NCBI GenBank assembly: GCA_964469645.1
Contig: CAYXZV010000005.1
Location: forward strand, 1 to 59,420
Direction: 5' to 3'
DNA: 59,420 nt
Origin: an uncultured Methanosarcinales archaeon
GTDB taxonomy: Archaea > Nanobdellota > Nanobdellia > Woesearchaeales > GW2011-AR4
Numbering within the stretch: the stretch's first letter is position 1; every line of letters begins with the position of its first letter. Below the pieces are notes generated by a model that saw only the letters and a list, made by a program, of their open reading frames with translations, was not told the DNA's origin and searched no databases. The translations under genes and the position numbers were made by a program. This document shows, piece by piece, positions 12,099-31,293 of the stretch.

Positions 12099-12169
12099 TT
12101 TAAATATGTTTCGGCATTGTGCGCACCCGCACACCAGTGTGCGGTACTACGTACCGCACGTCCCGAGAC
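12099..12169 (+). repeat. Dispersed palindromic element, copy A
   Basis: TTTAAA, 24-nt core GCGCACCCGCACACCAGTGTGCGG, hairpin, CCCGAGAC end. Confidence 0.75.
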
Positions 12170-12257
12170 TAGACAATTAATTCATAAATTTTTTTATTAT
12201 TCAAAACACAGAATAACTGATAAAAATAGAAAAAAAAATAAAAAAAACAATAAGAAA

Positions 12258-12503
12258 CTATCTTCTCTTCTTCCTTCTTCCGCCTCTGACCATCTTAGCC
12301 ATTGAGACATCGCCTTTCTTATCTATAAAGTATAGATATCCAGACTTTTTCTTAACTCCTACTTTAGCAACAACTTGTATTTTGCTTTTTCCTCTTTTCT
12401 TGCCGCGAGCCATTTTAGCTCTTGAAACGTTACCTTTTTTATCCAAGAAATATAGGTAACCTTTTTCTCTTTTTACTCCAACTTTTGCAACTTTTTGTGC
12501 CAT
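12258..12503 (-). CDS. Small basic protein made of two tandem ~35-aa repeats
   Basis: VAKVGVKxxxGYLYFxDKKGxVSxAKMxRG occurs twice. Confidence 0.85.
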   Translation of the reverse strand: MAQKVAKVGVKREKGYLYFLDKKGNVSRAKMARGKKRGKSKIQVVAKVGVKKKSGYLYFIDKKGDVSMAKMVRGGRRKKRR

Positions 12504-12612
12504 TACAACATCTCCTCCTATTTTTTTAGTTTATTAGACGAACCACCCGTCTTATGTTTTAATTTTTGCACGCTACCTTCTATTTAAAGGTTTCGTTTTT
12601 CCGACGGTGAAA

Positions 12613-13362
12613 TTACTCCAGAAGGAGTAATGACATCATTATTAAAACTCCAAGGACAATAGCAATGAATTGCAATAAAGATTTTTTGGCATCAACTTCC
12701 TTATGTATCTCAGGTATTAGGTCTGATCCTGCTATGTAAATAAAAGTTCCTGCTGCAAATGGAACTAAAAATGTGGTAATGTTTTCTAAGTATGAGCTGA
12801 TCAATAATGAAACAATTGCTCCTAAAACTGCAGTTAAGGCTGTAACAAAATTATAAAACAAAGCTTTCCCTTTTGAAAATCCTCCGTGCAATAAAACCCC
12901 AAAATCCCCTATCTCTGAAGGGACTTCATGCAGTATGACTGCTAAAGTTGTCGCAATTCCTACAGGTACGCTTGCCAAATAACTTGCACCAATTATTATA
13001 CCGTCTATAAAGTTATGCACTCCATCTCCCAACAGATTCATCATGGCAAACGGATGAATGTGCTCTTTTGAACTTGGTATATGGCAGTGTCTCCAGTGGA
13101 TAAACTTCTCAATAATGAATGAGAATCCGATTCCAAACAAGACATAAAGTGAAATACTCGGGCTAAAGCCAGCTTCCTCAACAACTTCCGGCAGCAAATG
13201 AATGAAAGCATCCCCAAACAATGCTCCGGCAGAAAAACTTACCATATACAACAAAATTTTTTTTAATTTATCCGCTTTGACAGCAAATGTCAATAAGCCT
13301 AAAAAAGATATAGAGCTGACTATTAATACACTTACTATTGAATAAAGCCAAATGTTTGCCAT
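12613..13362 (-). CDS. zupT: ZIP family zinc transporter
   Basis: SAGAL, His-rich loop HWRHCH, GDGVHNFIDG, LHEVPSEIGDF. Confidence 0.93.
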   Translation of the reverse strand: MANIWLYSIVSVLIVSSISFLGLLTFAVKADKLKKILLYMVSFSAGALFGDAFIHLLPEVVEEAGFSPSISLYVLFGIGFSFIIEKFIHWRHCHIPSSKEHIHPFAMMNLLGDGVHNFIDGIIIGASYLASVPVGIATTLAVILHEVPSEIGDFGVLLHGGFSKGKALFYNFVTALTAVLGAIVSLLISSYLENITTFLVPFAAGTFIYIAGSDLIPEIHKEVDAKKSLLQFIAIVLGVLIMMSLLLLE

Positions 13363-13392
13363 TTTGTTAATAAAAACCTAAACATTTATAAA

Positions 13393-13419
13393 TCTTATTG
13401 ATTTTCATTATCAATAAGA
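13393..13419. promoter_or_regulatory. Fur/Zur-box-like inverted repeat between divergent ZIP and Fur-family genes
   Basis: TCTTATTGAT-N7-ATCAATAAGA; reverse-strand core TGATAATGAAAATCA resembles the 7-1-7 Fur box; adjacent to TTTATAAA. Confidence 0.75.
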
Positions 13420-13443
13420 AATAAAAGACAAAATTTCTAAACA

Positions 13444-13830
13444 ATGCCAAAATTATCAAGACAAACAGAGCAAAAAACTTTGTTGGAAAAGGAATTAAGC
13501 AACGTGCATTCTTTTTTTACAGCAGAAGATTTGCACAATAAAGTAAAAAATAATAAAATTGGAATGGCAACAGTTTACAGATTCTTAAGAGAATTAAAGA
13601 ATAAAAATAAGCTTCATTCTTATATTTGCAATAGAAGATTCATTTACTCAAAAAATAAAAGCAACCATTGCCACTTTGCATGTCAGGAATGTAGCAAAGT
13701 GATTCATATCGATATAGATACCCTTGATTTTCTGAAGAAAAATGTTAAAGGAGACATATGCCATTTCCAGATAGATGTTGAAGGAATTTGTAATGACTGC
13801 CAAAATAAGAAAAAATTAAAAACATACTAA
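13444..13830 (+). CDS. Fur-family metalloregulator (probably Zur)
   Basis: FTAEDL, ATVYRFL, HCHFACQEC, GICNDC; divergent from ZIP. Confidence 0.9.
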   Translation: MPKLSRQTEQKTLLEKELSNVHSFFTAEDLHNKVKNNKIGMATVYRFLRELKNKNKLHSYICNRRFIYSKNKSNHCHFACQECSKVIHIDIDTLDFLKKNVKGDICHFQIDVEGICNDCQNKKKLKTY

Positions 13831-13844
13831 AAACACAAATTCTA

Positions 13845-15098
13845 ATGAAAACTATTGCAGATTTACAGGTCCACTCAAGATTCAGCAGAGCAACTTCTAA
13901 ACAGCTTAATTTGGAAAATTTAGAAAAATTCGCAAGAATTAAAGGTTTGAATCTTTTAGGTACAGGTGACATAACGCATCCTAAATGGCTTAAAGAGCTA
14001 AAGCAAGGATTAACTGAAGATGGTTCTGGAATCCTTAAATCAAAATCAGATTTTAATTTTGTTTTGCAGGGAGAAGTATCTAATATATACACGCAGGACG
14101 GCAAAGGAAGAAGAATTCATAATGTTGTCCTGGCAAAAAATTTTGATATAGCGGAGCAAATACAGGAAGCGCTAAAGAAAAAAGGACGCATAGATTATGA
14201 CGGAAGGCCAATCTTCGGTTTTTCGTGCCCAGAATTAGTAGAGATGATGAAAAACATCGACGAGAAAATAGAAATAATCCCTGCACATGCATGGACGCCT
14301 TGGTTTTCTCTATTTGGTTCAATGTCAGGTTTTGATTCTGTTGAAGAATGCTTTAAGGACCAGACAAAGCATATTCATGCCATTGAAACCGGTTTAAGCT
14401 CAGATCCTGCAATGAACTGGCGCTTATCACAATTAGATAAATACACTTTAGTGAGCAGTTCTGATGCTCATAGCTTCTGGCCATGGCGTATAGGACGTGA
14501 AGCAAACGTTTTTGATATAGAACCAACATATGACAATCTAATAAATTCAATAAGGACAAAAAAAGGATTTTTGAATACAATAGAAGTTGATCCTAATTAT
14601 GGAAAATATCATTTAGATGGTCACAGAGCATGCAATGTTTGTTTAGAACCAAAAGAATCCCTGAAAAACAAGAATATCTGCCCTAAATGCAAAAAACCCT
14701 TAACAGTTGGAGTTTTGCAAAGAGTAGAACAATTAGCAGACAGGGAAGATGGCTTCAAACCAAAAGATGCAATTCCATTTAAATCATTGATCCCTTTGTC
14801 AGAAATATTATCATCATTACTAAACACAAGCGTCGCAACAAAAAAAGTATTCGCCGAATATTATAAATTAATCAAAAATTTTGAAACCGAATTTAATATT
14901 TTATTGGAAGCAAAAAAAGAAGATTTAGCAAAAGTCACTGATGAAAAGATTGCAGATGCAATTATTGCAATAAGAGAAGGAAAAGTAAAGATAAAGCCGG
15001 GTTATGATGGAGTCTATGGACAGCCGGTATTTGATAATAAAGTTGAAGAAACAGGACTCAAGAAAAATAAGCAGGAAGGATTGAATAAGTTTTTTTGA
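13845..15098 (+). CDS. endoQ: Endonuclease Q family (PHP domain plus Zn finger)
   Basis: DLQVHSRFSRATS, IPAHAWTPW, ETGLSSDP, SDAHS, GKYHLDGHRAC, CPKC, PGYDGVYG. Confidence 0.9.
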   Translation: MKTIADLQVHSRFSRATSKQLNLENLEKFARIKGLNLLGTGDITHPKWLKELKQGLTEDGSGILKSKSDFNFVLQGEVSNIYTQDGKGRRIHNVVLAKNFDIAEQIQEALKKKGRIDYDGRPIFGFSCPELVEMMKNIDEKIEIIPAHAWTPWFSLFGSMSGFDSVEECFKDQTKHIHAIETGLSSDPAMNWRLSQLDKYTLVSSSDAHSFWPWRIGREANVFDIEPTYDNLINSIRTKKGFLNTIEVDPNYGKYHLDGHRACNVCLEPKESLKNKNICPKCKKPLTVGVLQRVEQLADREDGFKPKDAIPFKSLIPLSEILSSLLNTSVATKKVFAEYYKLIKNFETEFNILLEAKKEDLAKVTDEKIADAIIAIREGKVKIKPGYDGVYGQPVFDNKVEETGLKKNKQEGLNKFF

Positions 15099-15149
15099 TG
15101 TAGCATTCTAATCGACAAATTTAAATACATTCTATTCAAATAATAAATT

Positions 15150-15812
15150 ATGAACAACACTTTACTGTCTTCTATAAGCAAAAAAGCAATTAACGAGTTT
15201 AGGAAAGATTTATTGCAGATGCTAAGGTTAGGAAAAGGTATGGATAAATATTATGCAGAATCAAATTCAGATCTGGATGTTTACTTCAAAAAATTCAGTT
15301 CTCTAATAGATACCTTCAACAAAAAATACAAGAACTTAAAATTAAAGATGGCAAAAAAGACAAATGAAGTAGAGCTTAAAATTCTTTTAAATGAAAAAAG
15401 CGTAAGAGATTGTTTTGAGAATGCTGCATCAAAGATCCTTGGCGTGCAGGCATTAGGAACATCTAAGTTTGGAGCAGCTATGGTTTCAGAAGCAGAAGCA
15501 TTCACAAATGAGCTGGAAAAGACAAAAAACAAATTATACATAACTTACTACAATCCGCAGACAGGAACAGCGAATGTATTTCTGCAGTATGACAAGAAAG
15601 AAAAGAAAGTGCAGCTTGTTTATGATCTGGAAGAGATTGAAAACGAGCCAAGCCCCGAGTTTCAATTAACATCTTATTACGCATTAAATCAGCCATATAA
15701 TAAAAAAATAGACATACACGACGAAGGCACTACTTTAGGATTTTCAGAAGTGCCTTATCATGCAGAAAAAGCAGAATATTTCAGAAAATTTGACCCGCAT
15801 ATAAGTGAATGA
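15150..15812 (+). CDS. Hypothetical protein
   Basis: 220-aa ORF with host-like codon use and its own TATA box. Confidence 0.7.
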   Translation: MNNTLLSSISKKAINEFRKDLLQMLRLGKGMDKYYAESNSDLDVYFKKFSSLIDTFNKKYKNLKLKMAKKTNEVELKILLNEKSVRDCFENAASKILGVQALGTSKFGAAMVSEAEAFTNELEKTKNKLYITYYNPQTGTANVFLQYDKKEKKVQLVYDLEEIENEPSPEFQLTSYYALNQPYNKKIDIHDEGTTLGFSEVPYHAEKAEYFRKFDPHISE

Positions 15813-16676
15813 TCAAAACTCTTTCAGAAATTTTATCAATTGATTAGCCTTCTCGAACTCAAGAAATTCTTTTTTCGTAAGTGCAGGTATATCTTTTGGT
15901 TTTTTTTTGTTGAATATAACCAAATTATCTGCATCCAGTAGCTTAGATAAGGAAGAAAAATCACGTTTTGTCTTGTCCCCTATTCCTGTAAGTATTAGCT
16001 GGTCGTCTTTTTTTGCTATGATGTCAAAAGGTGTTTTATTTGTGTCAGCAGCTTCAAAACCCAAGTCGACATATTTCTTTGAAAAGTCAGATTTATGTTT
16101 TCCTCCGATTATATTGTTTGTTGAAAAAATATTTATCTGATTAAAGACCCTATGCCCAAAAATACCATAAATTTTCATTGCCTTACTTATGGTTATTTCT
16201 GAATCTCCTTTCTCGTATTTATCCATCATCCTGCTGGTTACGCCGACTTTTTTTGATAAGTAATTCAACGAGTAGCCTTTCTCTTCCCTTTTCTTCCTTA
16301 ATTTGTCGCCATCTATGGAAACAGTAAAACCGGCTTGAGTTCTTCTTACAAACGGAAATTTGTTTTTAATGGAATTAACAAAAGTATTGAAGTTAAAAGT
16401 ATATAGATCAAATCTGGTATAGAGGACATTATCTTCCAGTTTATCTCCTGCCTTTTCTGCAATTATTATTGGAACAGCACCTATGTAAGATGAAATAGTG
16501 TCCATAGCATCAGTATATTCCTTGCTTACAGCATTAGCATCTTCCAGAACTTTTATCAATAGTATTTTGCCTTGTTTCCTGGCAAGAAGATCAAAGCATG
16601 TTCTTGTAAGTGTCTTTACCGTAAACCCATCCTTCAAAAGGAACACTGCCAGCTTGTCAATAATCTTATTTTTCAT
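15813..16676 (-). CDS. Archaeal Xre-type HTH transcription regulator (COG1395-like)
   Basis: N-terminal nuclease-like fold (FDLLARK...LLIKV), central HTH LRKKREEKGYSL...VGVT...KYEKG. Confidence 0.85.
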   Translation of the reverse strand: MKNKIIDKLAVFLLKDGFTVKTLTRTCFDLLARKQGKILLIKVLEDANAVSKEYTDAMDTISSYIGAVPIIIAEKAGDKLEDNVLYTRFDLYTFNFNTFVNSIKNKFPFVRRTQAGFTVSIDGDKLRKKREEKGYSLNYLSKKVGVTSRMMDKYEKGDSEITISKAMKIYGIFGHRVFNQINIFSTNNIIGGKHKSDFSKKYVDLGFEAADTNKTPFDIIAKKDDQLILTGIGDKTKRDFSSLSKLLDADNLVIFNKKKPKDIPALTKKEFLEFEKANQLIKFLKEF

Positions 16677-16776
16677 AGTATGATCAATATCCTCCTCTTA
16701 TTAAAAATGTTTCTGATATAATGCCTTAGTTATTTATTGATAAACTTTATAAACAAACTATTTTACAAAAATCACT

Positions 16777-17307
16777 ATGATTGTAACAATATCCGGAAAA
16801 GCGGGTTCTGGAAAAAGCACCGTTGCAAAGCAGTTGGCAAAAAAGCTCAAACTGAAGCATTATTCTATAGGGGACTTAATGAGACAGCTTGCCAAAGAAA
16901 GGAAAATGTCTTTAACTAGATTGAGTAAGTTGGCAGAAAAAGACAAATCAATAGATTTAGAACTTGATAAAAAGACAATCGCGTTGAGAGAGGAAGATAA
17001 CTTTGTCATTGATGGAAGGCTAACAGCCCATTTCCTGCCTTATGCAGATCTTAAGGTATTCCTGGATTGTAATGATAAAACCAGGGCAGAAAGGATATTG
17101 AAAGAAAAAAGGCATGATGAAAAAAGCAAAAACATCAAAGAATTGATCAAAAAGATAAAGCAGCGCGAAAAAAGCGAAAGGAAGCGGTACAATAAGATTT
17201 ATGGCATCGATTACCAGGATAAAAAATTATACGATTTGATGATTGACACGACAAGCTTAAGCATAGAGGAAGTTTTGGTTGTGATTGAAGGGGCCATGGA
17301 AGATTAA
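16777..17307 (+). CDS. cmk: Cytidylate kinase (archaeal type)
   Basis: ISGKAGSGKST, SIGDLMR, VIDGRL, YGID. Confidence 0.93.
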   Translation: MIVTISGKAGSGKSTVAKQLAKKLKLKHYSIGDLMRQLAKERKMSLTRLSKLAEKDKSIDLELDKKTIALREEDNFVIDGRLTAHFLPYADLKVFLDCNDKTRAERILKEKRHDEKSKNIKELIKKIKQREKSERKRYNKIYGIDYQDKKLYDLMIDTTSLSIEEVLVVIEGAMED

Positions 17308-17346
17308 ATAAAATTGAGTATTGGATTAAAATTATTGTATTAAAGA

Positions 17347-18207
17347 CTAGCTTCTCCCAGGTATCACCAATTTAGAATATGGAATAACTAATGCTAAATG
17401 CATTGGAAATCTTTGCAAAACATAAGCAGCAAAGTGACCCATTTCATGTGCAAATCCATAAAGAGATGCAACTTCAGGAGTTACACTTAAACTTTCTTGC
17501 TGCTGAGATATTTCTTGCTGAGAAAATATCATTATAGGGTAAGTTGTGATTTTTCTTCTATAAGCCAAACGACCATTCGTATCTATTGAAGCCATTTCTG
17601 GATCGTAATCATGGCCCAACAAGAAGGAATTACCGTTTTCATGCCCAATAACAGATATGCCATTTTCCAGGGTTGCAGCAACGTCTTCCTCTCTTGTCTT
17701 TCTTTTGTTAACCTTAACATTTCTAAGAGATGAAAAATAAGTTTCAGAAAATCTGCCGCCTTTTAACCGCGTGAGCCAATTAATAAAATAATCTACAAAA
17801 TTTTGATTAGTCAATCCTCTAATATCTCCTAAGTTTATATCTTCTAAATCATCCATGGTTTGCTCAGGAAATGGTATGTCCATATAGCTAAAAACTCTTC
17901 TGGTTAAGTCTATTGCAAATGCCTCATTAAACATTCCTAAGCTTAAGGTTAAGCCCAAGAGTTTTCTTTCTAAAGGGCTTGGTCTAGTTGTCTCTCTTAC
18001 TCTTGTTTCGATACCTTCTATAGCAGAACCTTGCTCAATGTTTTCAAGATAAGCATGTGGTGGTAGTGTGTCTCTAAGTGCTGTAAAGAAATGAGCAGAG
18101 TGCTCTCCAAGCACATGCGCAAAAGCATCTGTAAGTTGCTGCCCATGTCTATCTAAAACACTATTAAGGCTATCAATACTCCCCCTATATGCAAAGGAAT
18201 TTTCCAT
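17347..18207 (-). CDS. Orphan protein with C-terminal HExxH motif
   Basis: GFAHEMGH near the C-terminus; own TATA box. Confidence 0.6.
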   Translation of the reverse strand: MENSFAYRGSIDSLNSVLDRHGQQLTDAFAHVLGEHSAHFFTALRDTLPPHAYLENIEQGSAIEGIETRVRETTRPSPLERKLLGLTLSLGMFNEAFAIDLTRRVFSYMDIPFPEQTMDDLEDINLGDIRGLTNQNFVDYFINWLTRLKGGRFSETYFSSLRNVKVNKRKTREEDVAATLENGISVIGHENGNSFLLGHDYDPEMASIDTNGRLAYRRKITTYPIMIFSQQEISQQQESLSVTPEVASLYGFAHEMGHFAAYVLQRFPMHLALVIPYSKLVIPGRS

Positions 18208-18312
18208 GACTCAGAGTAATACACGACAGTTTAAAAACCTTAGGAAAAAGATTAAAAAACAACAAAACTTATAAACAAACTTCAATTTCAAAAATTTAAT
18301 TCTTGAATCAAA

Positions 18313-18978
18313 ATGGAAAAAATTTCAAAAAAAGATTTCATTGAAATCGAATATACTGGCAAGCTTAAGGAAGACAATGCAGTATTTGACACGACCAGTG
18401 AAAAGGTTGCAAAGGAAAACAATCTTGACCTGCATACCGGTTATGAGCCCGTTGTTGTTTGCATCGGGGAAGAGCAGCTTTTGAAAGGTCTCGATAAAAA
18501 CCTAGAAGGAAAAGAGATAGGAAAGGAATATGATTTTGATATTAAACCGGAAGATGCTTTTGGAAGCAAGAATGCAAAACTCATACAGCTGATCCCAACT
18601 TCTAAATTCAAGCAGCAAAACATACAGCCTATGCCAGGAATGCAGCTGAATATTGATGGTGTGGTAGGAACAATAAAGACAGTCAGCGGGGGAAGAACTT
18701 TAGTGGACTTTAACCATCCATTGGCAGGAAAAGATCTTTCATATAATGTGAAAATCAATAAAAAAGTAACAGATGATAAGGAAAAACTGAAAGGATACTT
18801 AAAGCTAAGCTTAGGCACAAAAGATTTTGAAGTAGAGTTGAATAATGGAGATGCCAAAGTAAAGCTAAAGAATGATATACCAAAAGAAGCTCAAGAAACT
18901 TTAAGCAAAAAGATAACTGAAATAATATCAACCATTAAAAAAGTTGAATTTACCGTCAGTAATAACAAAAAAGCGTAA
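18313..18978 (+). CDS. Long-type FKBP peptidyl-prolyl isomerase
   Basis: IEYTG, FDTT, PEDAFG, VDFNHPLAGK, archaeal C-terminal domain. Confidence 0.93.
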   Translation: MEKISKKDFIEIEYTGKLKEDNAVFDTTSEKVAKENNLDLHTGYEPVVVCIGEEQLLKGLDKNLEGKEIGKEYDFDIKPEDAFGSKNAKLIQLIPTSKFKQQNIQPMPGMQLNIDGVVGTIKTVSGGRTLVDFNHPLAGKDLSYNVKINKKVTDDKEKLKGYLKLSLGTKDFEVELNNGDAKVKLKNDIPKEAQETLSKKITEIISTIKKVEFTVSNNKKA

Positions 18979-19006
18979 CTAAAATCTTCTCTGTGGAGTT
19001 AAAGTT

Positions 19007-19073
19007 GTCTCGGGGTATCGAAGATACCCCCATACGCTAGTGTGCAGGCATGCACAAAAACGCATAGTTTAAA
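19007..19073 (-). repeat. Dispersed palindromic element, copy C (abuts the ftsZ promoter)
   Basis: Reverse strand: TTTAAA, core GCATGCCTGCACACTAGCGTATGG, GGGGTATC-TTC-GATACCCC hairpin, CCCGAGAC. Confidence 0.75.
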
Positions 19074-19118
19074 TATAAGTATGGGTCATTATTAAAATTA
19101 TCATTCAAGAGGGGTAAG

Positions 19119-20264
19119 TTGGAACCGGAAATAAGCAATGCACAAACAGACACAGTTTCTCAGTCAAACCCATCAATTTCAGAGCAAAATCCGTCTATGT
19201 CTTCTCAAGGTGCTGATACAAATATTGATGCTGAGCTTGAACAGCTTTTAGCAAAGCAACGCGCTGCAATTAAAGTTGTTGGTGCAGGCGGCGGCGGCAA
19301 CAATACTATCCAAAGAATATCCGAAGTTGGCATCATAGGCGCTGAAACAGTTGCAATCAATACCGATGCTCAGGATTTGCTTTATACTAACGCTAATAAG
19401 AAGATTTTAATCGGAAGAGAATTGACTAAAGGCCTTGGCGCAGGCTCCGAACCAAGGATAGGTGAAGAAGCAGCCCGCGAACAAGAAGTAGAAATTAAAA
19501 AGTCATTGCAGGGTTGCGATATGGTCTTTATTACTTGCGGTCTTGGTGGTGGAACCGGTACTGGCTCAGCCCCAGTCATAGCAGATGTTGCAAAAAAGAT
19601 AGGTGCTTTGACAGTAGGCATTGTAACATTGCCTTTTTCAATGGAAGGGCAAAGAAGATATGAAAATGCTGTTATCGGCCTTGAAAAAATGGAGCAGACT
19701 GTCGATACATTAATTGTCATACCAAATGAAAAATTATTGGAATTAGCGCCAGAACTTCCTTTACATACAGCTTTTAAGGTAGCAGATGAAATATTAACAA
19801 ATGCAGTTAAGGGTATTGCAGAACTAGTGACAAAAACAGGTTTAGTTAACTTAGATTTTGCAGATATAAGAGCTGTAATGAAACAAGGAGGAGTGGCTTT
19901 AATCGGTGTAGGAGAAAGCGATACAGAAAACAGAGCAGTAGAAGCAGTTGAAAAAGCCGTTAATAACCCTCTATTGGATGCTGATATCTCCGGCGCAAAC
20001 GGAGCTTTGATAAACGTCATTGGTGGGGAAGACATGACTTTGGATGAAGCACGAAAAGTTGTTGAGACAGTATCAGAAAAGCTTGATGACGATGCAAGAA
20101 TAATATGGGGCGCGCAAATAAGCAAGGATCTGGAAAAGACCATAAGGACAATGCTTATTGTAACAGGAGTCAAAAGTTCACAAATCCTGGGTTCAGGAAT
20201 CCAAACAACAGATAAAAGAAAAGAAGAGATAGAATCAGAGCTAGGAATAGAATTTCTTGATTAA
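19119..20264 (+). CDS. ftsZ: Cell division protein FtsZ
   Basis: [28 protein letters not shown]; TTG start. Confidence 0.98.
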
Positions 20265-20266
20265 AA

Positions 20267-20455
20267 ATGAACTTCAATTCTTATTGGGTAAAATTTAAAA
20301 GCTTCATTAACGAGTCTGCAAGAGTCTTGAAAGTGACAAGAAAACCCAATAAAATGGAGTTCAAGACAATAGTTAAAGTGTCAGGTTTAGGCATGATAAT
20401 TGTAGGCCTTATGGGCTTCGTGATTACAATGACAAAACAGTTGCTTTTTCCCTAA
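20267..20455 (+). CDS. secE: Protein translocase SecE/Sec61-gamma
   Basis: RVLKVTRKP...EF...G.G...GLMGF; ftsZ-secE-spt5 order. Confidence 0.93.
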   Translation: MNFNSYWVKFKSFINESARVLKVTRKPNKMEFKTIVKVSGLGMIIVGLMGFVITMTKQLLFP

Positions 20456-20564
20456 AGATTTATAAATAGCAAAAAAATCACATTCACTATTACTCTTTTT
20501 TACTTTTTACCCAGACTTAAAGGTCCAGGTAGAAAGCTAATGAGTAATAAATTATGATCTAAAG

Positions 20565-21041: not shown

Positions 21042-21054
21042 GTTCATAATTCTT

Positions 21055-21624
21055 TTATCTGGAAAATCTTTGAACTCTAAAACCCCCAAGATCATTTTCC
21101 ATTGATTCTAGGGCCTCTATGATTTTTCTCGTAAACGCAGCCATTTGATTATAAAAAGAAATCGCGTGATGGAAGTTAAGTAGCTTGACAGGCATCTCAA
21201 CTGATTTTGTACTCTTTGCGCCAATGCCGAACACAACCTTACTGCTTCTTTTTGTTTGCTCAAGCATGGTTTCCATGAGTTCAAAATGGGTAAGTAGCGA
21301 ATTAGCAGTTTCCTTTGTCTGTTGGATTTCTGACACTATCGTGCTAGCATCTCCAGACAGATGTTCCTGCAAATCATCATATGTACCTACTTTCTGCCTT
21401 CTTTGCTCCATGGCTTTAAGAATTTCAACATCACGTCGTAGCTTTCTCATGTCTTCGACGAGTCTATGAACAATCATAACTACAGCGGTACTGGACTCCT
21501 TGGCCTTGTGCAGCTTTTCAATTTCAATATTTTCTAATGCCTCTGCAGTGTGTAAATCTTCATCTATCTTGTCGATTTCAGGGGGTAGCTGCGGACGTCT
21601 TAATAATCTCCTTATTATCCTCAT
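21055..21624 (-). CDS. Orphan helical protein inserted between spt5 and rpl11
   Basis: 189-aa ORF antisense to the cluster, with its own TTTAAATA box. Confidence 0.6.
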   Translation of the reverse strand: MRIIRRLLRRPQLPPEIDKIDEDLHTAEALENIEIEKLHKAKESSTAVVMIVHRLVEDMRKLRRDVEILKAMEQRRQKVGTYDDLQEHLSGDASTIVSEIQQTKETANSLLTHFELMETMLEQTKRSSKVVFGIGAKSTKSVEMPVKLLNFHHAISFYNQMAAFTRKIIEALESMENDLGGFRVQRFSR

Positions 21625-22569: not shown

Positions 22570-22574
22570 TTATC

Positions 22575-23456: not shown

Positions 23457-23505
23457 TATTAATGTATTTCCAGAGCTGAAATAAAAATTTTCCCTTTTCT
23501 TCTAA

Positions 23506-23610
23506 ATAAGTATATAAATAAGTATAAATATAAGTATCTATTTAAATAAAATACCAGCTAAAATCGTAATGTTTAAATATAAGTATCTAAATAAGAATAA
23601 AAATAAGTAT
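23506..23610 (+). repeat. Two triplets of ATAAGTAT direct repeats with 12-bp period
   Basis: Copies at 23506, 23518, 23530 and 23579, 23591 (ATAAGAAT), 23603. Confidence 0.85.
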
Positions 23611-23640
23611 ATATACCTTAATTCCATATGAACTCCAGAG

Positions 23641-23668
23641 TCAAAAGCCAACTTTCGTTGGCTTTTGA
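23641..23668. promoter_or_regulatory. Perfect 12-bp hairpin upstream of the AbrB-like gene
   Basis: TCAAAAGCCAAC-TTTC-GTTGGCTTTTGA. Confidence 0.75.
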
Positions 23669-23692
23669 TTTATACTCTAATAGGTCCTTAAT

Positions 23693-23860
23693 ATGCCAAC
23701 AGAATTCAAAAGAAAACTCTACAGAAGAGGTTCTAGCTTTGAAACAACTATTCCTATGCCTTTGCTTTTTGCTTTAGACAAGAAAAAGAAGTACAATGTA
23801 GTCTTTGCTTTTGATGCTGATGCCAATAAATGGTATGTTAAATTTGAAGAACGAAAATGA
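23693..23860 (+). CDS. AbrB/MazE-like swapped-hairpin small DNA-binding protein (55 aa; absent from the ORF track)
   Basis: MPTEFKRKLYRRGSSFETTIPMPLL matches the RK-x3-G-x-S-x3-TIP pattern. Confidence 0.75.
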   Translation: MPTEFKRKLYRRGSSFETTIPMPLLFALDKKKKYNVVFAFDADANKWYVKFEERK

Positions 23861-23869
23861 GGTGGAAAC

Positions 23870-24166
23870 ATGTATAGATTTACGAAGTTTTTGGGCTCGT
23901 TAGAGCATTATGAGTTAGTTAAATTGAAGAAAGGGCTGGAAAAAGGAACAATAGATTTTGAAAAAGAGATACAGGACCGTATAAAAGAGCATGAAAAAAG
24001 ACATTCGAAATTCTGCGCAACATGCTCAAATACATTAGACCACTATAATCCAAATAATTACACGATTATATTCGGCCCTGAAGATTTCAGGAAAAAAGCC
24101 TCCTTTTGCGGATTGGATTGCCTGGAATATTTTATGATAAATATGAAACAAATGAAAAAAGTGTAG
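23870..24166 (+). CDS. Small Cys4 (TRASH-like) metal-binding protein
   Basis: CATC...FCGLDC; SD GAGGTG upstream. Confidence 0.75.
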   Translation: MYRFTKFLGSLEHYELVKLKKGLEKGTIDFEKEIQDRIKEHEKRHSKFCATCSNTLDHYNPNNYTIIFGPEDFRKKASFCGLDCLEYFMINMKQMKKV

Positions 24167-24175
24167 GTGATAAAA

Positions 24176-24295
24176 ATGCAGAAAAAATTGAATAATTTTT
24201 CAGAGAATAAAAACCTAAGTTATGCAAAATACATAGAAGAGATTACATTCGAGCAATTAAAGAAAATTTCTGTTGTTAATGATTATGTAAATTAA
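24176..24295 (+). CDS. 39-aa micro-ORF
   Basis: SD AGGTGA 5 nt upstream; operon position. Confidence 0.5.
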   Translation: MQKKLNNFSENKNLSYAKYIEEITFEQLKKISVVNDYVN

Positions 24296-24310
24296 AAAAA
24301 GGTGGTGTAA

Positions 24311-24415
24311 ATGGAAATAAATGAAATATGTGAAATAACCGGAAAGACACGGGATGAAATAGAAAAAATGTTGGAGAAGGATGATGTCATAGAGCTTAAA
24401 TTGACGGAAAAATAG
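24311..24415 (+). CDS. 34-aa micro-ORF (MEINEICEITGKTRDEIEKML...)
   Basis: SD AGGTGG upstream; helix-turn-helix-like sequence. Confidence 0.55.
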   Translation: MEINEICEITGKTRDEIEKMLEKDDVIELKLTEK

Positions 24416-24436
24416 TAGGAATAAAGTATCACTAAA

Positions 24437-27064
24437 ATGCATGATGAGCCTATTGATGAAATTTTTAAGGCATTGAACTCAAAAAAAGAGGGCCTGACAG
24501 AGAAAGAAGCAGAGTTAAGATTAAAAAAATACGGCTATAACGAAATAAAAGAAGAAAAGAGGATTTCTCCAATAAAAATTTTCCTCCAACAATTTAATTC
24601 TGCCGTTGTATATATCCTGATAGCTGCCTTAGTTATTTCTATATTTATCGGAGAACAGATAGATGCAGTTGTTATAGGGATAATACTGATCCTGAATGCA
24701 TTATTCGGTTTTTATCAGGAATATCGGGCAGAAAAATCAATAGAAGCGCTCAAAAAATTAGCAAGCTTAAAAGCTACTGTTCTAAGGGATGGAAAAGAAA
24801 AAGAGATAGATGCAAAACTCTTAGTCCAAGGAGATATAATTGTATTGGCAGAAGGGGACAAGATCCCGGCTGATTCAAGGATATTTGAATTGGCCAATCT
24901 ACAGACTCTGGAAGCTGCATTGACAGGAGAAAGCACCCCGGTTAAAAAAGAGCTTAAAGTTTTAGCAGAAAAAACACCTTTGGCAGATAGGATCAATATG
25001 ACATTTTCCGGGACCGTTATAACCTGCGGTAAAGGAAGAGCAGTTGTTACAGGAACCGGAATGAAATCCGAAATAGGAAAAATAGCAAAACTAATGCAGG
25101 AAACAGAAGAGGAAAAAACACCTCTGCAAAAAAAATTGGATCAGCTTGGAAAATTGCTCGGAGCTTTGACAATAGTCATTTCCATAATTGTCTTTTTGGG
25201 GGGAATTTTTAAAGGTGGTGATTTAATAGAATTTTTTATCATAGCCGTAGCTCTTGCTGTTGCTGCCATTCCCGAAGGATTGCCTGCAGTAGTTACAATC
25301 GGATTGTCCATAGGCTCCCAGAAGATGGTTAAAAGGAACGCTTTGATCCGTAAGCTGCCTTCAGTCGAGACTCTCGGTTCAACAACTGTTATCTGTTCAG
25401 ATAAGACAGGAACCCTGACAAAAAATGAAATGACTGTCAAGAAAATATACACTTGTAACAAGATCATTGATGTTACAGGTTCCGGTTACGAGAAAAAAGG
25501 AGGATTTCTGTTCAATAATAAAAAAATCAGCACCAAAGAGATTGAATTATTATTAAAAATAGGTACATTAAACAACGATGCTTCTTTGAATGATGGTAAT
25601 GTTATTGGAGACCCTACCGAAGCTTCCTTGATTGTTTCTGCTGCAAAAGCCGGCCTGAAAAAAGAAGAGCTGGAAAAAAAGCATAAGAGGATCGATGAGA
25701 TACCTTTCACTTCAGAAAGAAAAATAATGACTACAATACATGATTTCAATAGCGAAAAACTTGCTTTTGTAAAAGGAGCGCCTGAAGTCGTGCTTAAGCT
25801 TTGCAAGTCCGTTTATGAAAACGGCAAAATAAAGAAATTGACAGAAGCAAAGAGAAAAGAGATTCTGCAGATAAACCAACAATTTGCTAATAGTGCTTTA
25901 AGAGTCTTAGGTTTTGCTTTCAAGACAGTCATGAATAAGGACAGGACTGAAAAAAACCTTACTTTTGTCGGTTTGCAGGGAATGATTGACCCTCCAAGAG
26001 AAGAGATCAAGGGAGCAATAAGTAAATGCAGGAGAGCAGGAATAAATGTCATTATGATAACAGGTGATCATGAAATAACAGCCAGAGCCATAGGAAAAGA
26101 GATTGGATTAGAAGGAAAAAGCTTGACCGGGCAGCAGCTGGAAAAAATCTCCAATTTTGATAAAATCGTTGAGGATATAGCAATATATGCTCGTGTCAAT
26201 CCTGAGCACAAGATAAAAATCGTTGATGCTTTAAAGAAAAAAGGGCATATTGTTGCGATGACCGGAGACGGAGTAAATGACGCACCAGCATTAAAGAAAG
26301 CAGATATTGGAGTAGGGATGGGCATTACAGGCACTGATGTTGCTAAAGAATCTTCTGATATGATCCTAACAGATGATAATTTTGCATCTATAGTGAATGC
26401 AGTTGAAGAAGGTCGTGGAATATATGGCAATATAAAGAAGTTTGTTGAATATCTGCTGTCCTCAAATTTAGGAGAGATTTTGACATTATTCACCGCCATA
26501 ATGATCGGTTTACCTTTACCTTTGATTGCCATAATGATCCTATGGATAAACTTAGTTACTGATGGGTTGCCGGCACTAGCTTTAAGCGTTGATCCTTCTG
26601 ATCCTAACATAATGGAGCAAAAACCGAGGAATCCAAAAGAAAAGATTATCTCAAATCCTATTATAGTGAGGATGATTATTGTTGGAATCACTATGATGAT
26701 TGGAACACTTGCAATTTTCAAAATTTACAATCCAGAAGCAAATTTGATGTATGCGCAAACAATAGCGTTTTCCACATTGATGTTCTACCAGATGTTCAAT
26801 GTGTTGAACTGCCGCTCTGAATTCAATTCATTGTTCAAGATAGGGGTTTTTTCAAACATGAAGCTTTGGGGTGCAATATTAATCTCAGTATTGCTGCAGA
26901 TTTTAGTCATACACACACCATTAAGCATATTTTTCAAAACAGTACCTTTAACATTTATGGACTGGATCTATGTTGTTTTGGTTTCAAGCAGTGTGTTGAT
27001 AATAGTTGAGATCTATAAATTTGCAGTGGCTAAATTTAACCCTAATGTCTGTAAGACTGCATGA
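24437..27064 (+). CDS. P-type II (Ca2+-type) cation-transporting ATPase
   Basis: [30 protein letters not shown]. Confidence 0.96.
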
Positions 27065-27125
27065 TAACTTTATTTTTTCTATTGTTGATGTAAGATTTAT
27101 AAATGGAACTCCTTAACCAACAGAT

Positions 27126-29159
27126 ATGGAACTAAAACAGGTATGCCAGGAAATCCTGGAAGAGGCAAAGAAAAACAACGTCCAAGATTTAAAGAAATTT
27201 AACCGTATTAAACTTAAGGTTCTGAATAGATTGAAATATAAGAAAATCCCTAAAAACGCTACTATAGCTTCCTTAGCATCAGAACAAGACAAGAAAATAT
27301 TCAAGAAAATTCTTTCAATGAAGCCTGTAAGAACATTATCCGGTGTCGCACCTATTGCTTTGATGACTGACCCTTATCCCTGCCCGCATACGCTTAAAGG
27401 CATTGGCCCATGCACTTACTGTCCTGGAGGTCCCGGAAGCCCTTTTGGAGATGTTCCGCAAAGCTATACTGGCAAAGAGCCTAGTACTAGAAGAGCTATA
27501 AGAAACCATTACGACCCTTATCTTGGAACATTCAATAGGTTAGAACATTACATTGCTATGAATTCTGTTCCTGAGAAAACTGAAGTTATATTGCAAGGAG
27601 GAACTTTTCCTTTCATGCCCAATATCTACCAGGATTATTTTGTCAAGTACTTGCTTAAGGCGATGAACGACTTTTCAAGACTGTTTTACGATGAAAATGG
27701 AATTGATATGAAAAAATTCAATACTTTCTTTGAAATGCCTTCTGACATAAAAGACAAAGAAAGAACCGAAAGGATACAGAAAAAACTATTCCACATCAAG
27801 AATTTGGATCTAAGCGACAAAAAAACTTTGGATACAATAAATAATTTATTTTTTAATAATAATTCAATGAATAATGGAAATAAAAATATTGGGAAAAATA
27901 ATAATGAAATAATAGTACAATGGAAAAAATTCAATGAAAAAATAAACAATGAACAAAAAAACAATGAAAATAATAATTTAATTACAATAAAAAACTATTC
28001 AAATAATAATAAAAATAATAATATAAAAAATATTGAAAATAAAAATAATAATTCTAATGAACTAAACCCAAACATTGCAGCAATGAAAACAGTATTAAAA
28101 AAAGTCAACGAACAAAACAATAATTCTATCACATTAGAACAAGCCCAGAAAGAGAACGAAACCGCTAAAATTAGATGTATCGGATTGACAATAGAGACGA
28201 AAAGCGATTATGGAAAATTAATTCATGGGAATCAAATGCTGAAACTAGGATGCACAAGAATAGAATTAGGCATACAAAGCATTTATGATAAAGTTCTGGA
28301 AAAAACAAACAGAGACAACACTGTACAGGATAATATAGAATCAATAAGGATATTGAAAGACTTAGGGTTCAAGATAAATGCACATTACATGCCAGGTTTG
28401 CCTCTAACAACTAAAGCAATGGATCAAAAAGGACTAAGAGCACTATTTGAAGATCCTGATTACAAACCAGACATGTTGAAAATATACCCTTGTATGGTTA
28501 TGCCCGGAACTAAATTGTATGATGATTGGAAATCCGGAAAGTTTAAGCCGCTAACAACTAAAGAAGCTGCAGAATTGATTGCAGAGATGTTTTCTTACGT
28601 TCCTGAATGGTGTAGGATAATGCGCGTTCAAAGAGATATTCCAACTTATATGACTTCATCAGGAGTGGATAAGACTAATTTAAGGCAGTATGTAGATAAG
28701 ATATGCAAGGAAAAAAACATCAATCCAAGAGATATAAGAGCGAGAGAAGCAGGAATGAATAATAAAGACATATTAAAAAATATAAATATAAAAATAATTG
28801 AATATGAAGCATCTCATGGAAAAGAATTTTTTATTGAAGCAGAAGATGAGGAAGAAGATATTTTGATTGGATATTGCCGTTTAAGATTTTCATCCCAATC
28901 CTTAAGAAAAGAAATCACTAAAGATTCTGCTTTGATTAGGGAATTGCATGTTTATTCATTAGCAGTAGGGCTTGGCAAAACATCTGAAGACAGCTTACAA
29001 CATCGCGGAATAGGTAAAAAACTGATGGAAAAAGCAGAGGAAATAGTAAAACAAAAAGGAAAAAACAAAATTGTTGTAATAGCAGGTATTGGAGCAAGAG
29101 AATATTTCAAAAAACTAGGATATGAGCGTGATGGGCCTTACATGTCCAAACAAATATAA
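27126..29159 (+). CDS. elp3: Elp3 tRNA U34 acetyltransferase (radical SAM plus KAT) with Asn-rich insertion
   Basis: CPH...CTYC, QSYTG, GGTF, ELGIQS, LKIYP, RVQRDIP, IRELHVY, QHRGIG. Confidence 0.96.
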   Translation: MELKQVCQEILEEAKKNNVQDLKKFNRIKLKVLNRLKYKKIPKNATIASLASEQDKKIFKKILSMKPVRTLSGVAPIALMTDPYPCPHTLKGIGPCTYCPGGPGSPFGDVPQSYTGKEPSTRRAIRNHYDPYLGTFNRLEHYIAMNSVPEKTEVILQGGTFPFMPNIYQDYFVKYLLKAMNDFSRLFYDENGIDMKKFNTFFEMPSDIKDKERTERIQKKLFHIKNLDLSDKKTLDTINNLFFNNNSMNNGNKNIGKNNNEIIVQWKKFNEKINNEQKNNENNNLITIKNYSNNNKNNNIKNIENKNNNSNELNPNIAAMKTVLKKVNEQNNNSITLEQAQKENETAKIRCIGLTIETKSDYGKLIHGNQMLKLGCTRIELGIQSIYDKVLEKTNRDNTVQDNIESIRILKDLGFKINAHYMPGLPLTTKAMDQKGLRALFEDPDYKPDMLKIYPCMVMPGTKLYDDWKSGKFKPLTTKEAAELIAEMFSYVPEWCRIMRVQRDIPTYMTSSGVDKTNLRQYVDKICKEKNINPRDIRAREAGMNNKDILKNINIKIIEYEASHGKEFFIEAEDEEEDILIGYCRLRFSSQSLRKEITKDSALIRELHVYSLAVGLGKTSEDSLQHRGIGKKLMEKAEEIVKQKGKNKIVVIAGIGAREYFKKLGYERDGPYMSKQI

Positions 29160-29160
29160 A

Positions 29161-30114
29161 ATGCCAACAGAAATCCCAAATTCAGAAGAAATTGAATTCA
29201 AAGAGAAATTCATAGAACGTTATAAGAACTTAACAGACTTCAATGAATTTAAAAAATACTCTTTATCATTTCTTAGAAGATCAATCAGAATAAACACCTT
29301 AAAGATATCAGTAGAAGAACTAAAGAAAAGATTGGAGAAGAACTGGAACTTAGAGCAGATACCCTGGTGCCAAGAAGGATTCTATATTGAACATATAAAA
29401 AAAGAAAGAAGAGATATTGGAAATTTAATAGAACATTCTTTGGGTTATTTCTATACCCAGGAAGCAGCTTCTATGATCCCTCCTTTAGTTCTGGAGCCAA
29501 AGGAAACTGACGTTGTTTTAGATATAGCAGCTTCTCCAGGAAGCAAAACAACCCAGATAGCTGCAATGATGAAAAATAAAGGAATTTTGATCGCAAATGA
29601 TTATCAGATACCTAGGATAAAGCCTTTAAGCTTAAACCTACAAAGATGCGGAATAACTAACTGTGTAATTACATTGATGCATGGCCAGAGATTCTATAAT
29701 TCCAACATAAAATTTGACAAAATCTTGGTGGATGCACCTTGTTCCGGAACAGGAACCATAAGGAAATCTCTAAAAACATTAAGAATCTGGAATCCAAATA
29801 TGGTAAAACGATTGTCAATAACACAAAAACAGCTTATAGAGACAGCTTTCAACACATTAAAGCCAAACGGAACTTTAGTCTACTCAACATGCTCCAATGA
29901 GCCGGAAGAAAACGAAGCAGTAATTGATTTTTTACTGGATAAATATGATAATGCAGAAGTAGAAGAGATAAACTTGAAAGAGATAAAGAGAAGCAACCCA
30001 ATCTTAGAGTTTGACAACAATAAATATAATGAAGAAATAAAAAAATGCTTAAGAATCTGGCCTCAGGATAATGATAGTGAGGGCTTCTTTGTCGCCAAGA
30101 TAAAGAAATTCTAA
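29161..30114 (+). CDS. RsmB/NOL1/NOP2 family RNA m5C methyltransferase
   Basis: QEAASM, DIAASPGSKT, DAPCSGTG, YSTCS. Confidence 0.95.
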   Translation: MPTEIPNSEEIEFKEKFIERYKNLTDFNEFKKYSLSFLRRSIRINTLKISVEELKKRLEKNWNLEQIPWCQEGFYIEHIKKERRDIGNLIEHSLGYFYTQEAASMIPPLVLEPKETDVVLDIAASPGSKTTQIAAMMKNKGILIANDYQIPRIKPLSLNLQRCGITNCVITLMHGQRFYNSNIKFDKILVDAPCSGTGTIRKSLKTLRIWNPNMVKRLSITQKQLIETAFNTLKPNGTLVYSTCSNEPEENEAVIDFLLDKYDNAEVEEINLKEIKRSNPILEFDNNKYNEEIKKCLRIWPQDNDSEGFFVAKIKKF

Positions 30115-30801
30115 CTAATTCTTTTTCTTAGCAATCCTGGTTTTCTTAACTACTTTAAGCTTACGGCCTACTTTATGTCCGTTAGTAGCATGGCCATTTC
30201 CATTACCTAAAGAATGCCCATTCCCATTCAGAACCATAGAATGCCCATTACCAAGAGCATTACCTGCTGTAGCAAGACCATTGCCCATTTTGGCAAACCC
30301 ATTCGTTGCATGCAGCTCCTTTATCTTTTCCTGCAAGAACATAATAGTCTTATTGTTATCCTGTAAATTTAATAGGCTTCCGCATTCAGGACATTTAAAC
30401 TCAAAATCAGTAGCTTTGTCAAAGTTAACCCTTACACAAGCGCTTGGACAAAGGTATATATTGCCCCTATTAGCTTCCTCATGTGCAAGCCTTTCGGTAA
30501 ACTTCTTGATCTTAGAATAATGAACGTTCTTCATAAGATCCTTAATCCTTTTCTTGTTAAAGGTCCAGTAGCTTATATACCAGCCTTTCTGCCTGTCCTT
30601 TTTCCTGTAGTAAGTGACCAAATTATGGTTATAAAGCCTATACAGAATGTTCCGAATCTCATGAATATCAGATTTTACCTTTTCAGCTATTTTAAAATCA
30701 GAAATATTCTTCTTATCCTTAAGAAATTCAACTACTTTTAAACTATCTTCTCCAACTACTTCTTTTACTGTATCATATATTTTTGTGTTTGTTATTTTCA
30801 T
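30115..30801 (-). CDS. tfe: Transcription factor E (TFIIE-alpha) with low-complexity tail
   Basis: Winged helix IRNILYRL...GWYISYW and Zn ribbon CPSAC...CPECG. Confidence 0.92.
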   Translation of the reverse strand: MKITNTKIYDTVKEVVGEDSLKVVEFLKDKKNISDFKIAEKVKSDIHEIRNILYRLYNHNLVTYYRKKDRQKGWYISYWTFNKKRIKDLMKNVHYSKIKKFTERLAHEEANRGNIYLCPSACVRVNFDKATDFEFKCPECGSLLNLQDNNKTIMFLQEKIKELHATNGFAKMGNGLATAGNALGNGHSMVLNGNGHSLGNGNGHATNGHKVGRKLKVVKKTRIAKKKN

Positions 30802-31143
30802 TTTTAACTACATTACCCCACTATTAATTTTCTTAAATTACACCCCATGAATATGAAAAATCCCACCAAGGCTTATACAGGAGAAAAGAGGTGATCAAAA
30901 CTCCTACACATCCCTCGACGGTGGGATAATTGAAAATGATTCCAGCCTCTTGCCTCTATTGCTTGTTTTAATTCCACCCTTCCCAAAATTAGATGGGAAT
31001 ATTTAACCCCCTTTAATCGCTATAATCGGTCCAGAACTACATTCTGTTCAGTAGGACCTAGCAAAGAGTTTAGGCATCGCTACTATATAAATTCTCCTAT
31101 ACTCCAAAACCACCTTTTTAAAGTATTCATTGGAAAGCATATA

Positions 31144-31244
31144 TTTAAAGCTTTCGGTTTTTACGTGCCCGTACAACAGTGTATGGGGTGATAAACAAGC
31201 GACACACTTCGTGCGGTTCGGCGCTACGCTCAATCACCCGAGAC
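31144..31244 (+). repeat. Dispersed palindromic element, copy B
   Basis: TTTAAA, core ACGTGCCCGTACAACAGTGTATGG, CTTCG/CTACG motifs, CCCGAGAC. Confidence 0.7.
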
Positions 31245-31293
31245 TTCGAAGGTACAGAAAATTATATATAAACCATCTAAATAAGGCTAGAAG

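Follow-up and report, generated by a model that had tools for sequence, protein, structure and literature searches.

A family of REP/BIME-like two-hairpin repeats at the edges of promoters and start codons in marine and groundwater DPANN archaea

We analysed a stretch of archaeal DNA of 59,420 nt (59.4 kb, 35.1% GC), hereafter called the window, and found that three short palindromic sequences in its intergenic regions are members of a genuine, previously undescribed family of hairpin repeats of marine and groundwater DPANN archaea (Woesearchaeota/Nanoarchaeota). These resemble repetitive extragenic palindromes (REP sequences) and bacterial interspersed mosaic elements (BIMEs) of bacteria; the repeat is an archaeal counterpart of both with an unusual preference for promoters. 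With moderate confidence, we favour the reading that these are short, non-autonomous repeats, mobile at the DNA level, moved in trans and inserted at the edges of existing promoters or start codons. The host of the window is a marine DPANN archaeon; proteins with the annotation Candidatus Woesearchaeota or Nanoarchaeota share 84-91% identity with its FtsZ. The ultra-small genomes of DPANN archaea are thought to hold almost no repeats. REP/BIME repeats and their domesticated transposases have been regarded as a bacterial speciality, none having been described in Archaea.

Results

Structure of a repeat arm

One arm of the repeat is about 60 nt long and is made of a T, hairpin 1, a 10-nt linker, hairpin 2, the tag GAGAC and a tail. 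The T, located one base before TGTRC, was invariant at 47/47 sites and is the start of the arm. Hairpin 1 (TGTRCR-NNCC-YGYACA) has a 6-bp stem and an NNCC loop, the conserved 10-nt linker between the hairpins reads MYAGYGTATN, and hairpin 2 (GGGNNNNN-NNN-NNNNNCCC) has an 8-bp stem and a triloop. The GAGAC tag (GTCTC on the opposite strand) was invariant or nearly so and was followed by a loosely conserved tail of 8-12 nt. Three main subtypes could be told apart by hairpin 1 and the linker. Hairpins 1 and 2 are unlike, TTGTRC at one end does not complement GAGAC at the other, and single arms have no terminal inverted repeats.

The structure was evaluated on 47 distinct 50-mers. The two stems together were 97.6% paired, 117 cells were changed on both sides as compared with 39 in shuffles, and slid controls reached 24-55% pairing; 639 of the 658 pairs were Watson-Crick, 3 were G.T and 10 were A.C. 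A first, sequence-only reading of the window had proposed a conserved hairpin inside a 24-nt core (CCYGYACA/YGTRYGG). This hairpin was 73% paired over the 47 copies, against 97% for the alternative stem, and is not the conserved structure; the conserved hairpin-1 stem (TGTRCR/YGYACA) begins 3 nt upstream of the core.

The bases of the stems varied freely, from GC to AT at five pairs or more, with pairing retained, while the unpaired positions A19, G20, T23, T25 and GAGAC were strongly conserved. Such free variation argues against a transcription factor operator or upstream activating sequence with a conserved duplex dyad read by its sequence; it is the signature of a folded single strand and makes a global activator site, as once suggested for this element, unlikely. 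The loop of hairpin 2 was TNC closed by C-G in 32/47 copies, which corresponds to C-GNA-G on the opposite strand and agrees with the GNA triloops noticed earlier. C-GNA-G is a known hyperstable DNA mini-hairpin. Because wobble pairs are scarce and the loops are of the DNA mini-hairpin type, we infer that the hairpins matter in DNA, probably single-stranded, rather than in RNA.

Extent of the family and arrangement of its copies

An nhmmer profile built from 44 distinct compact copies was used to search 423 kb of related AT-rich archaeal DNA, from genomes and metagenomes, and gave 107 matches, 85 of them near full length; the further copies for which the sequence-only reading had suggested a scan do exist. 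Scanning one genome per species with a pattern identified true copies in two AT-rich archaeal metagenome-assembled genomes, Nanoarchaeota B44T1L10 and a bin of 33% GC labelled Methanosarcinales. This label is probably wrong; an element pair of the bin (locus L011) matched, flanks included, a pair in L053. The bacterial matches of the genome scan (L009, L012, L013, L015, L017, L019 and L020), located in DNA of 60-71% GC, were attributed to chance and discarded. The metagenome scan added 44 further loci from TARA, from other marine samples and from the Hainich aquifer, and two pattern scans of viral contigs gave no copies. When the window was compared with Rfam (Rfam 15), the gathering threshold was passed by tRNAs only (three), permissive thresholds likewise gave tRNAs alone, and nothing meaningful was obtained around copies 1 and 3 at E-values up to 10. 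No description of this repeat family was found in the literature searched, and the element still matches no described family, as had been said of it at the outset. Its abundance differed between lineages, and orthologous sites were either occupied or empty.

Copies were found singly, as tail-to-tail pairs, in tandem and nested. The linkers of 20 site-distinct tail-to-tail pairs were mostly of 15/16 nt (consensus GGCTTGAGATnnnGCA) or of 19/20 nt (TGGGnnCTTTTGAATRCTCA, the partner arm ending in CCCGAAAC). These linkers were alike at different genomic sites, and the two arms of a pair were usually of unlike subtype. Partial copies in tandem were present in L022, some pairs had a truncated partner, and L030 contained a nested insertion. 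A shorter related repeat is also nested in a family member of L030 (10552-10594); it is made of TTTACG-TTGC-CGTAAA, a 7-nt linker and GGGGTGC-TTT-GCACCCC, has no GAGAC, and suggests a second, mini family built on the same two-hairpin plan.

Position relative to promoters and start codons

TATA-like hexamers located at most 30 nt upstream of the hairpin-1 end were found to end 10-14 nt from the element in 36/37 cases. This spacing was common to single copies and to both outer ends of pairs, and no peak of TATA distance was seen on the tail side of single copies. The hairpin-1 end lies either 3-5 bp upstream of the transcription factor B recognition element (BRE) or 2-4 bp upstream of a start codon, and it is always this end that is turned to the gene, so that insertion took place repeatedly in a single orientation. 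The outward consensus, aligned on the hexamer, was A-rich at positions -3 to -5, like a BRE, and read TTTAAATA; the asymmetry of the BRE-side A-run and of TTTAAATA was directed away from the element, in support of the link to outward-facing promoters that the sequence-only reading had drawn.

The nearest open reading frame (ORF) on the hairpin-1 side was directed away from the element in 39/54 cases, and its start mostly lay at 33-63 nt, a distance to be expected of leaderless or short-leader genes, or at 2-4 nt. When orthologous sites were collapsed, 24/47 were promoter-adjacent, at least 5 abutted a start codon, and many of the remainder abutted another copy. Pairs were located exactly between divergent promoters. 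The same promoter edge held different subtypes in related genomes at the third site of the window (site 3, see below) and at the L016/L049/L051 site, and one site was occupied independently in two lineages. Identity was 0.82 in the element and 0.48 in its flanks.

The three copies of the window

Matches to the 24-nt degenerate core, with up to 3 mismatches tolerated, were confined to positions 12121-12144 (plus strand), 19030-19053 (minus strand) and 31163-31186 (plus strand), when shuffles led us to expect 0.00. The sequence CCCGAGAC was found exactly 3 times in the 59.4 kb and always closes a copy at its 3' end (0.24 expected; 0/100 shuffles reached 3). The three copies noticed at first sight are therefore real, and within the window the core and CCCGAGAC are unique to them. 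The TTTAAA hexamers are located at 12099-12104, 19068-19073 and 31144-31149. Hairpin loops of both the C-TAC-G and the C-TTC-G type were found, and the copies rank among the most GC-rich non-coding islands of the window. The features of the three sites are the following.

12099..12116, minus strand: host promoter of tRNA-Asn, outside the repeat; reads GCCGAAACATA-TTTAAAC, its TATA box precedes the tRNA 5' end (12074) by 25 nt
12117..12181, plus strand: copy 1, subtype C with a variant hairpin 2; invariant T at 12117; nhmmer match at 12118-12169, E=3e-7
12118-12123 / loop 12124-12127 / 12128-12133, plus strand: hairpin 1 of copy 1
12139-12159, plus strand: hairpin 2 of copy 1 (variant), GTGCGGTAC-TAC-GTACCGCAC
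12162-12169, plus strand: CCCGAGAC of copy 1, then the tail TAGACAATTAAT of about 12 nt, whose end is approximate
19007..19057, minus strand: copy 2, subtype A, consensus-like; T at 19057; nhmmer E=1e-16
19056-19041, minus strand: hairpin 1 of copy 2, followed by the linker at 19040-19031
19030-19012, minus strand: hairpin 2 of copy 2, GGGGTATC-TTC-GATACCCC
19011-19007, minus strand: GAGAC of copy 2, followed by a variable tail to about 18979
19058..19075, plus strand: host ftsZ promoter, older than the insertion; AAAACGCATAG-TTTAAATA
31142..31158, minus strand: host promoter of site 3, AAAACCGAAAGC-TTTAAATA, which drives about 300 nt of conserved non-coding sequence located upstream of tfe
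31159..31254, plus strand: copy 3, subtype B with an expanded hairpin 2; T at 31159; core, CCCGAGAC and nhmmer matches
31160-31175, plus strand: hairpin 1 of copy 3, 5/6 pairs, followed by the linker at 31176-31185
31186-31192 (GGGTGAT) and 31233-31239 (ATCACCC), plus strand: outer stem of hairpin 2 of copy 3, enclosing 40 nt
31240-31244, plus strand: GAGAC of copy 3, followed by the tail TTCGAAGGTA to 31254

The expanded type of hairpin 2 of copy 3 (GGGTGAT...GTTCGCTACGCTCA...ATCACCC) was seen again in L024, L027, L036, L039 and L046.

Empty orthologous sites and older promoters

The orthologous regions of relatives were reached by means of the FtsZ and TFE proteins, and the search for empty sites suggested by the sequence-only reading was successful at all three loci of the window. 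The nhmmer profile detected zero copies in 81 kb of the close relatives L004 to L008.

Copy 1 was missing from the orthologous tRNA-Asn site in L004, L005 and L006. The tRNA-Asn promoter (TTTGTTTAAATATGTTTCGGC) was the same base for base in L004 and L005 and differed by a few bases in L006, with an AT-rich spacer beyond it in all three; in the window, copy 1 sits directly after CGGC. The tRNA-Asn (GTT) gene itself (window 11950-12074, minus strand) was missed by ARAGORN, and only its 5' fragment was detected by Rfam, because it contains three introns: the canonical 37/38 intron, one insert of 17 nt located in the 5' anticodon stem and another of 31 nt that follows the anticodon stem. Its counterpart has the canonical intron only in L004 and no intron in L006. 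The 17-nt insert contains TCCAGAGACTAC, a sequence identical to that formed by the 3' end and tail of a degenerate member of the family (L018 2208, minus strand).

Copy 2 was missing upstream of ftsZ in L004, L005, L006 and L008, the FtsZ proteins of which are 90, 90, 87 and 84% identical to that of the window. The ftsZ promoter (AAAAACAAATAR-TTTAAATATAAGT) was kept in L004 to L008, all of which lack the element. About 50 bp separate the FKBP gene from ftsZ in the four relatives, and their FKBP stop codon runs on into the TATA box. In the window this ftsZ promoter is kept but is preceded by about 85 additional bases that contain copy 2. Alignment of window 18940-19075 with L004:9900-10020 placed the FKBP stop codon of the relatives over the BRE/TATA junction of ftsZ, with no intergenic spacer. 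The C-terminus of the FKBP of the window is one codon shorter than that of the relatives and ends before the inserted copy 2. The left flank of copy 2 (AACAAAAAAGCGTAACTAAAATC) may be a decayed duplicate of the ftsZ promoter, a likeness without statistical support. A long duplication at the ftsZ site (18/23 matches by eye) gave p = 0.66 in the flank test and was retained as a bare possibility.

Site 3 was empty in L068 and L071 and was occupied in L070 by a tail-to-tail pair of different subtypes, the promoter-proximal junction of which (|AAAACCGAAAG) is identical to that of copy 3 of the window. The site-3 promoter (AAAAACCGAAAGGTTTAAATATAT) was kept in L068 and L070, while L071 has AAAAACCGAAAG with a variant TATA box. 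The non-coding sequence of about 300 nt downstream of this promoter was also conserved in L068 and L070. In the window this stretch, between the copy-3 promoter and tfe (30802-31120, minus strand), had no Rfam match and includes GATCACCTC, a sequence similar to the 3' end of 16S rRNA; the stretch is probably an unannotated structured RNA.

Comparison of these sites showed that, to judge by the orthologous sequences, the copies of the window were inserted after the neighbouring promoters already existed. Since the promoters are present, near base-for-base, in relatives without the element, the element did not supply them, which had been considered a possibility, but landed beside them. For the same reason TTTAAA and the next 13-16 nt, which had been counted as a component of the repeat, belong to the host promoter and lie outside the repeat, which starts at the invariant T; a promoter included in the repeat was ruled out by the empty sites with promoters retained and by the difference in identity between flanks and element. 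The mobility of the element, which had been taken for a non-autonomous, interspersed one, is evident because the three sites are empty in relatives, the copy number varies by lineage, and there are nested and tandem copies.

A free spacer of 44-50 nt was on offer at the tRNA-Asn site and at site 3, and yet the insertions abut the BRE. Together with the different subtypes at the same edge in related genomes, this points to targeting or to selection for position, beyond mere tolerance.

Junctions and flanking direct repeats

Only the T at -1 was invariant at the junction, the flanks being otherwise merely A/T-rich. Copies at operon junctions were flanked by direct repeats that leave both genes intact, their length being 31 nt in L033 (28/31 positions identical), 22 nt in L028 and 11 nt in both L031 and L016; those of L033, L028 and L031 all start with AAAA at the precise end. 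The nested copy of L030 was flanked by CTGCACACTAGTR (12-13 nt). In 18 independent single copies, the bases adjacent to hairpin 1 recurred downstream of the tail above mismatched controls (permutation p = 0.012-0.018). Pairs had no flanking repeats and no fixed short target duplications. The criteria of a classical MITE (a miniature transposable element with inverted repeats) of the DDE type do not describe these copies: single arms have no inverted termini, pairs are inverted but unflanked, and the length of the repeats is variable. No standard transposase fits this combination, in which the hairpin-1 end is precise, the tail varies and the duplications differ in length; this leaves room for a one-ended, copy-choice or RNA-mediated process.

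Search for a candidate enzyme

The sequence-only reading had called for a search for genes of REP-associated tyrosine transposases (RAYT) or TnpA. No RAYT was found among the 1473 ORFs of all loci by phmmer and motif screens with a RAYT consensus. A looser HUH/Y motif screen of these ORFs gave one Y1 HUH gene, in L010 (2408-3016, minus strand; Pfam Y1_Tnp, E=5e-32). The element copy of L010 is identical, flanks included, to that of L044, a locus of a 126-kb contig holding at least 5 copies. Homologues of the L010 Y1_Tnp protein shared 63-92% identity with it, several of them bearing a Woesearchaeota or Nanoarchaeia annotation. The Y1 gene of another lineage is solo, lies 13 nt from the next gene and has a conserved structured region upstream. 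Proteins of this solo IS200-like Y1 family, to which L074 6001-6558 (plus strand) also belongs, are of about 185 aa (DHLH ... YILEQ), and the roughly 170 nt upstream of the gene are conserved and contain a covarying hairpin (CCGAC-TAAA-GTCGG versus CCAGC-TAAA-GCTGG). The Y1 gene looks more like a domesticated gene than an active insertion sequence, and a Y1 transposase is a plausible candidate for moving the repeat. In published surveys (PMC3733652, PMC6006769), REP/RAYT systems turned up in Bacteria alone, and the transposases seen in Archaea were limited to classical IS200 ones; a 2026 preprint gives K07491 (RAYT) matches in Nanobdellota.

Discussion

Proposed insertion in trans and promoter preference

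In the reading that we favour, the arms would be copied in trans, the enzyme being one that recognises single-stranded DNA in its folded form. The obvious candidate would be a Y1 HUH transposase (IS200/RAYT kind), one of which is conserved in relatives that bear the element. The AT-rich and readily melted DNA just upstream of active promoters may become single-stranded, both as donor hairpins and as target, and this would account for the bias toward promoter edges. Selection in a very compact genome would then purge the insertions that damage the BRE, the TATA box or coding ends.

Several results weigh against this. Flanking direct repeats of 11, 12-13, 22 and 31 nt are not known from IS200/IS605 or REP/RAYT transposition, and the presence of one precise and one variable end suits a one-ended or copy-choice process as well as a transposase. 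The adjacency to promoters could stem from selection, either for function or for harmlessness, instead of targeting. No transposase, integrase or reverse transcriptase was found in the annotated 42 kb of the window. The hairpins of the element were not found in the flanks of the Y1 gene, which bear a different, conserved hairpin, and no transposase gene flanked by them was found.

A bolder proposal, which we advance tentatively, is that the element homes actively to the upstream edge of a promoter bound by the TATA-binding protein and transcription factor B (at about -40), through contact with the initiation complex or through DNA melted by the negative supercoiling that transcription drives. 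It would be a prokaryotic analogue of Ty3, Ty1 and Tf1, possibly moved by a domesticated Y1 transposase, and the first REP/RAYT-like system in Archaea.

We consider it rather unlikely that the host keeps the element as a promoter-upstream module (an insulator or supercoil sink, placed between back-to-back promoters or between the end of a gene and the promoter that follows, or the docking site of a structure-specific protein) that works only at the BRE edge, mobility supplying the copies and selection fixing the well-placed ones. Such a role would agree with the fixed TATA distance and orientation, with the location of pairs exactly between divergent promoters, with the different subtypes found at one promoter edge (site 3 and the L016/L049/L051 site), with the strong conservation of the unpaired A19, G20, T23, T25 and GAGAC, and with insertions that abut the BRE at the tRNA-Asn site and site 3 in spite of the free spacer. 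However, the same promoters operate without the element in close relatives, and about half of the sites, including operon junctions and nested copies, are not promoter-adjacent.

Spread through an RNA or copy-choice intermediate, SINE-like (short interspersed nuclear element) or by template switching, is improbable in our view. The GUCUC...GCACA strand would be copied from its precise 3' end at a nick in an A/T-run, so that the 5' end would vary and the target duplications would differ in length. The direct repeats of L033, L028 and L031, which start with AAAA at the precise end, their enrichment in the permutation test, the variable tail and the partial copies that retain only the hairpin-1 end are what this process would give, and the mismatches on the GUCUC...GCACA strand favour G.U (10 versus 3). 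On the other hand, wobble pairs are rare (1.5% on this strand, 0.5% on the opposite one), the annotated 42 kb gave no reverse transcriptase, both outer ends of a pair are precise and flanking repeats are missing there, the A-run is that of the target and not a tail of the element, and many copies lie upstream of promoters, where a steady transcript is not expected.

That each copy is a small RNA gene using the adjacent TTTAAA as its own promoter and reading into the element, as a TATA-like box at a fixed distance from a GC-rich island in 35% GC DNA might suggest, is very improbable and was rejected on account of promoter polarity, spacing and the scarcity of wobble pairs, the BRE-like A-run and TTTAAATA pointing away from the element, a start about 22 nt downstream of a box 10-14 nt from the element falling inside hairpin 1, the promoters of relatives serving tRNA-Asn and ftsZ without the element, Rfam giving no match, and some copies abutting start codons inside operons.

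Comparison with known systems

Like the bacterial REP, BIME and REPIN sequences, the repeats are short GC-rich extragenic palindromes whose copies number in the tens, which fall into several subtypes per genome and which carry a short, conserved unpaired tag beside a stem. As in REP/BIME systems, they form inverted dimers of unlike partners with conserved linkers and mosaic clusters, and show lineage-specific abundance and turnover at orthologous sites. They differ from REP/RAYT systems in their archaeal host and in having two different hairpins and a conserved linker instead of one hairpin. Their tag is GAGAC/GTCTC and not the GTAG or CGTC of REP, which occur here only by chance from the variable base before GTCTC. 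REP sequences are mostly found at the 3' ends of genes, whereas these repeats are located at the 5' promoter edge or the start codon. Some copies, unlike REP, have long variable flanking direct repeats, and no repeat-flanked RAYT was found in the loci searched.

The palindrome-associated transposable elements (PATEs) derived from IS200/IS605 and moved by a Y1 HUH TnpA likewise lack terminal inverted repeats and possess a pair of unlike subterminal hairpins, ends that are asymmetric and unpaired bases that are conserved next to the stems, and the Y1_Tnp gene family is present in the same lineages as our repeat. IS200/IS605 elements, however, make no target duplication and insert 3' of a fixed 4-5-nt target, while duplications of 11-31 nt and a single invariant junction T were found here, and the hairpins in the flank of the Y1 gene are unrelated to those of the repeat.

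The Correia elements of Neisseria and other promoter-sited bacterial MITEs are also small non-autonomous repeats upstream of genes, and MITEs can alter transcription units. Correia elements have terminal inverted repeats, a TA duplication, their own promoter and an IHF site, whereas the promoter is here that of the host and predates the insertion. The likeness to Ty3, Ty1, Tf1 and the Dictyostelium TRE5-A concerns their working only: a fixed short distance from the initiation machinery and the reuse of the same promoter edges. Those are autonomous retroelements with their own integrase or endonuclease, tethered to TFIIIB, Pol III or Sap1, and no protein or tether is known here. SINE-like traits (variable duplications, a precise 3' end and a variable 5' end) were seen in some single copies but not in pairs, and the element has no A-tail of its own.

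Landing within a few bases of the BRE makes the repeat a natural marker of archaeal promoters in uncultured lineages and perhaps a new example of integration directed to promoters. Should the elements influence transcription, streamlined genomes would have in them a cheap way of rewiring or insulating promoters. The profile can be used for annotation; the repeats disrupt gene calls at operon junctions and leave behind remnants of starts and stops.

Other features of the window

Three regions of the window, 13444-13830 (plus strand), 17347-18207 (minus strand) and 21055-21624 (minus strand), were absent from the syntenic and otherwise collinear regions of L004 to L008 and are lineage-specific gains; these window-only genes encode a FUR-family regulator and two hypothetical proteins. 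A 370-aa ORF at about 53381-54493 (minus strand), which adjoins the topoisomerase VI genes and has a weak LAGLIDADG_3 match, may encode a free-standing homing endonuclease.

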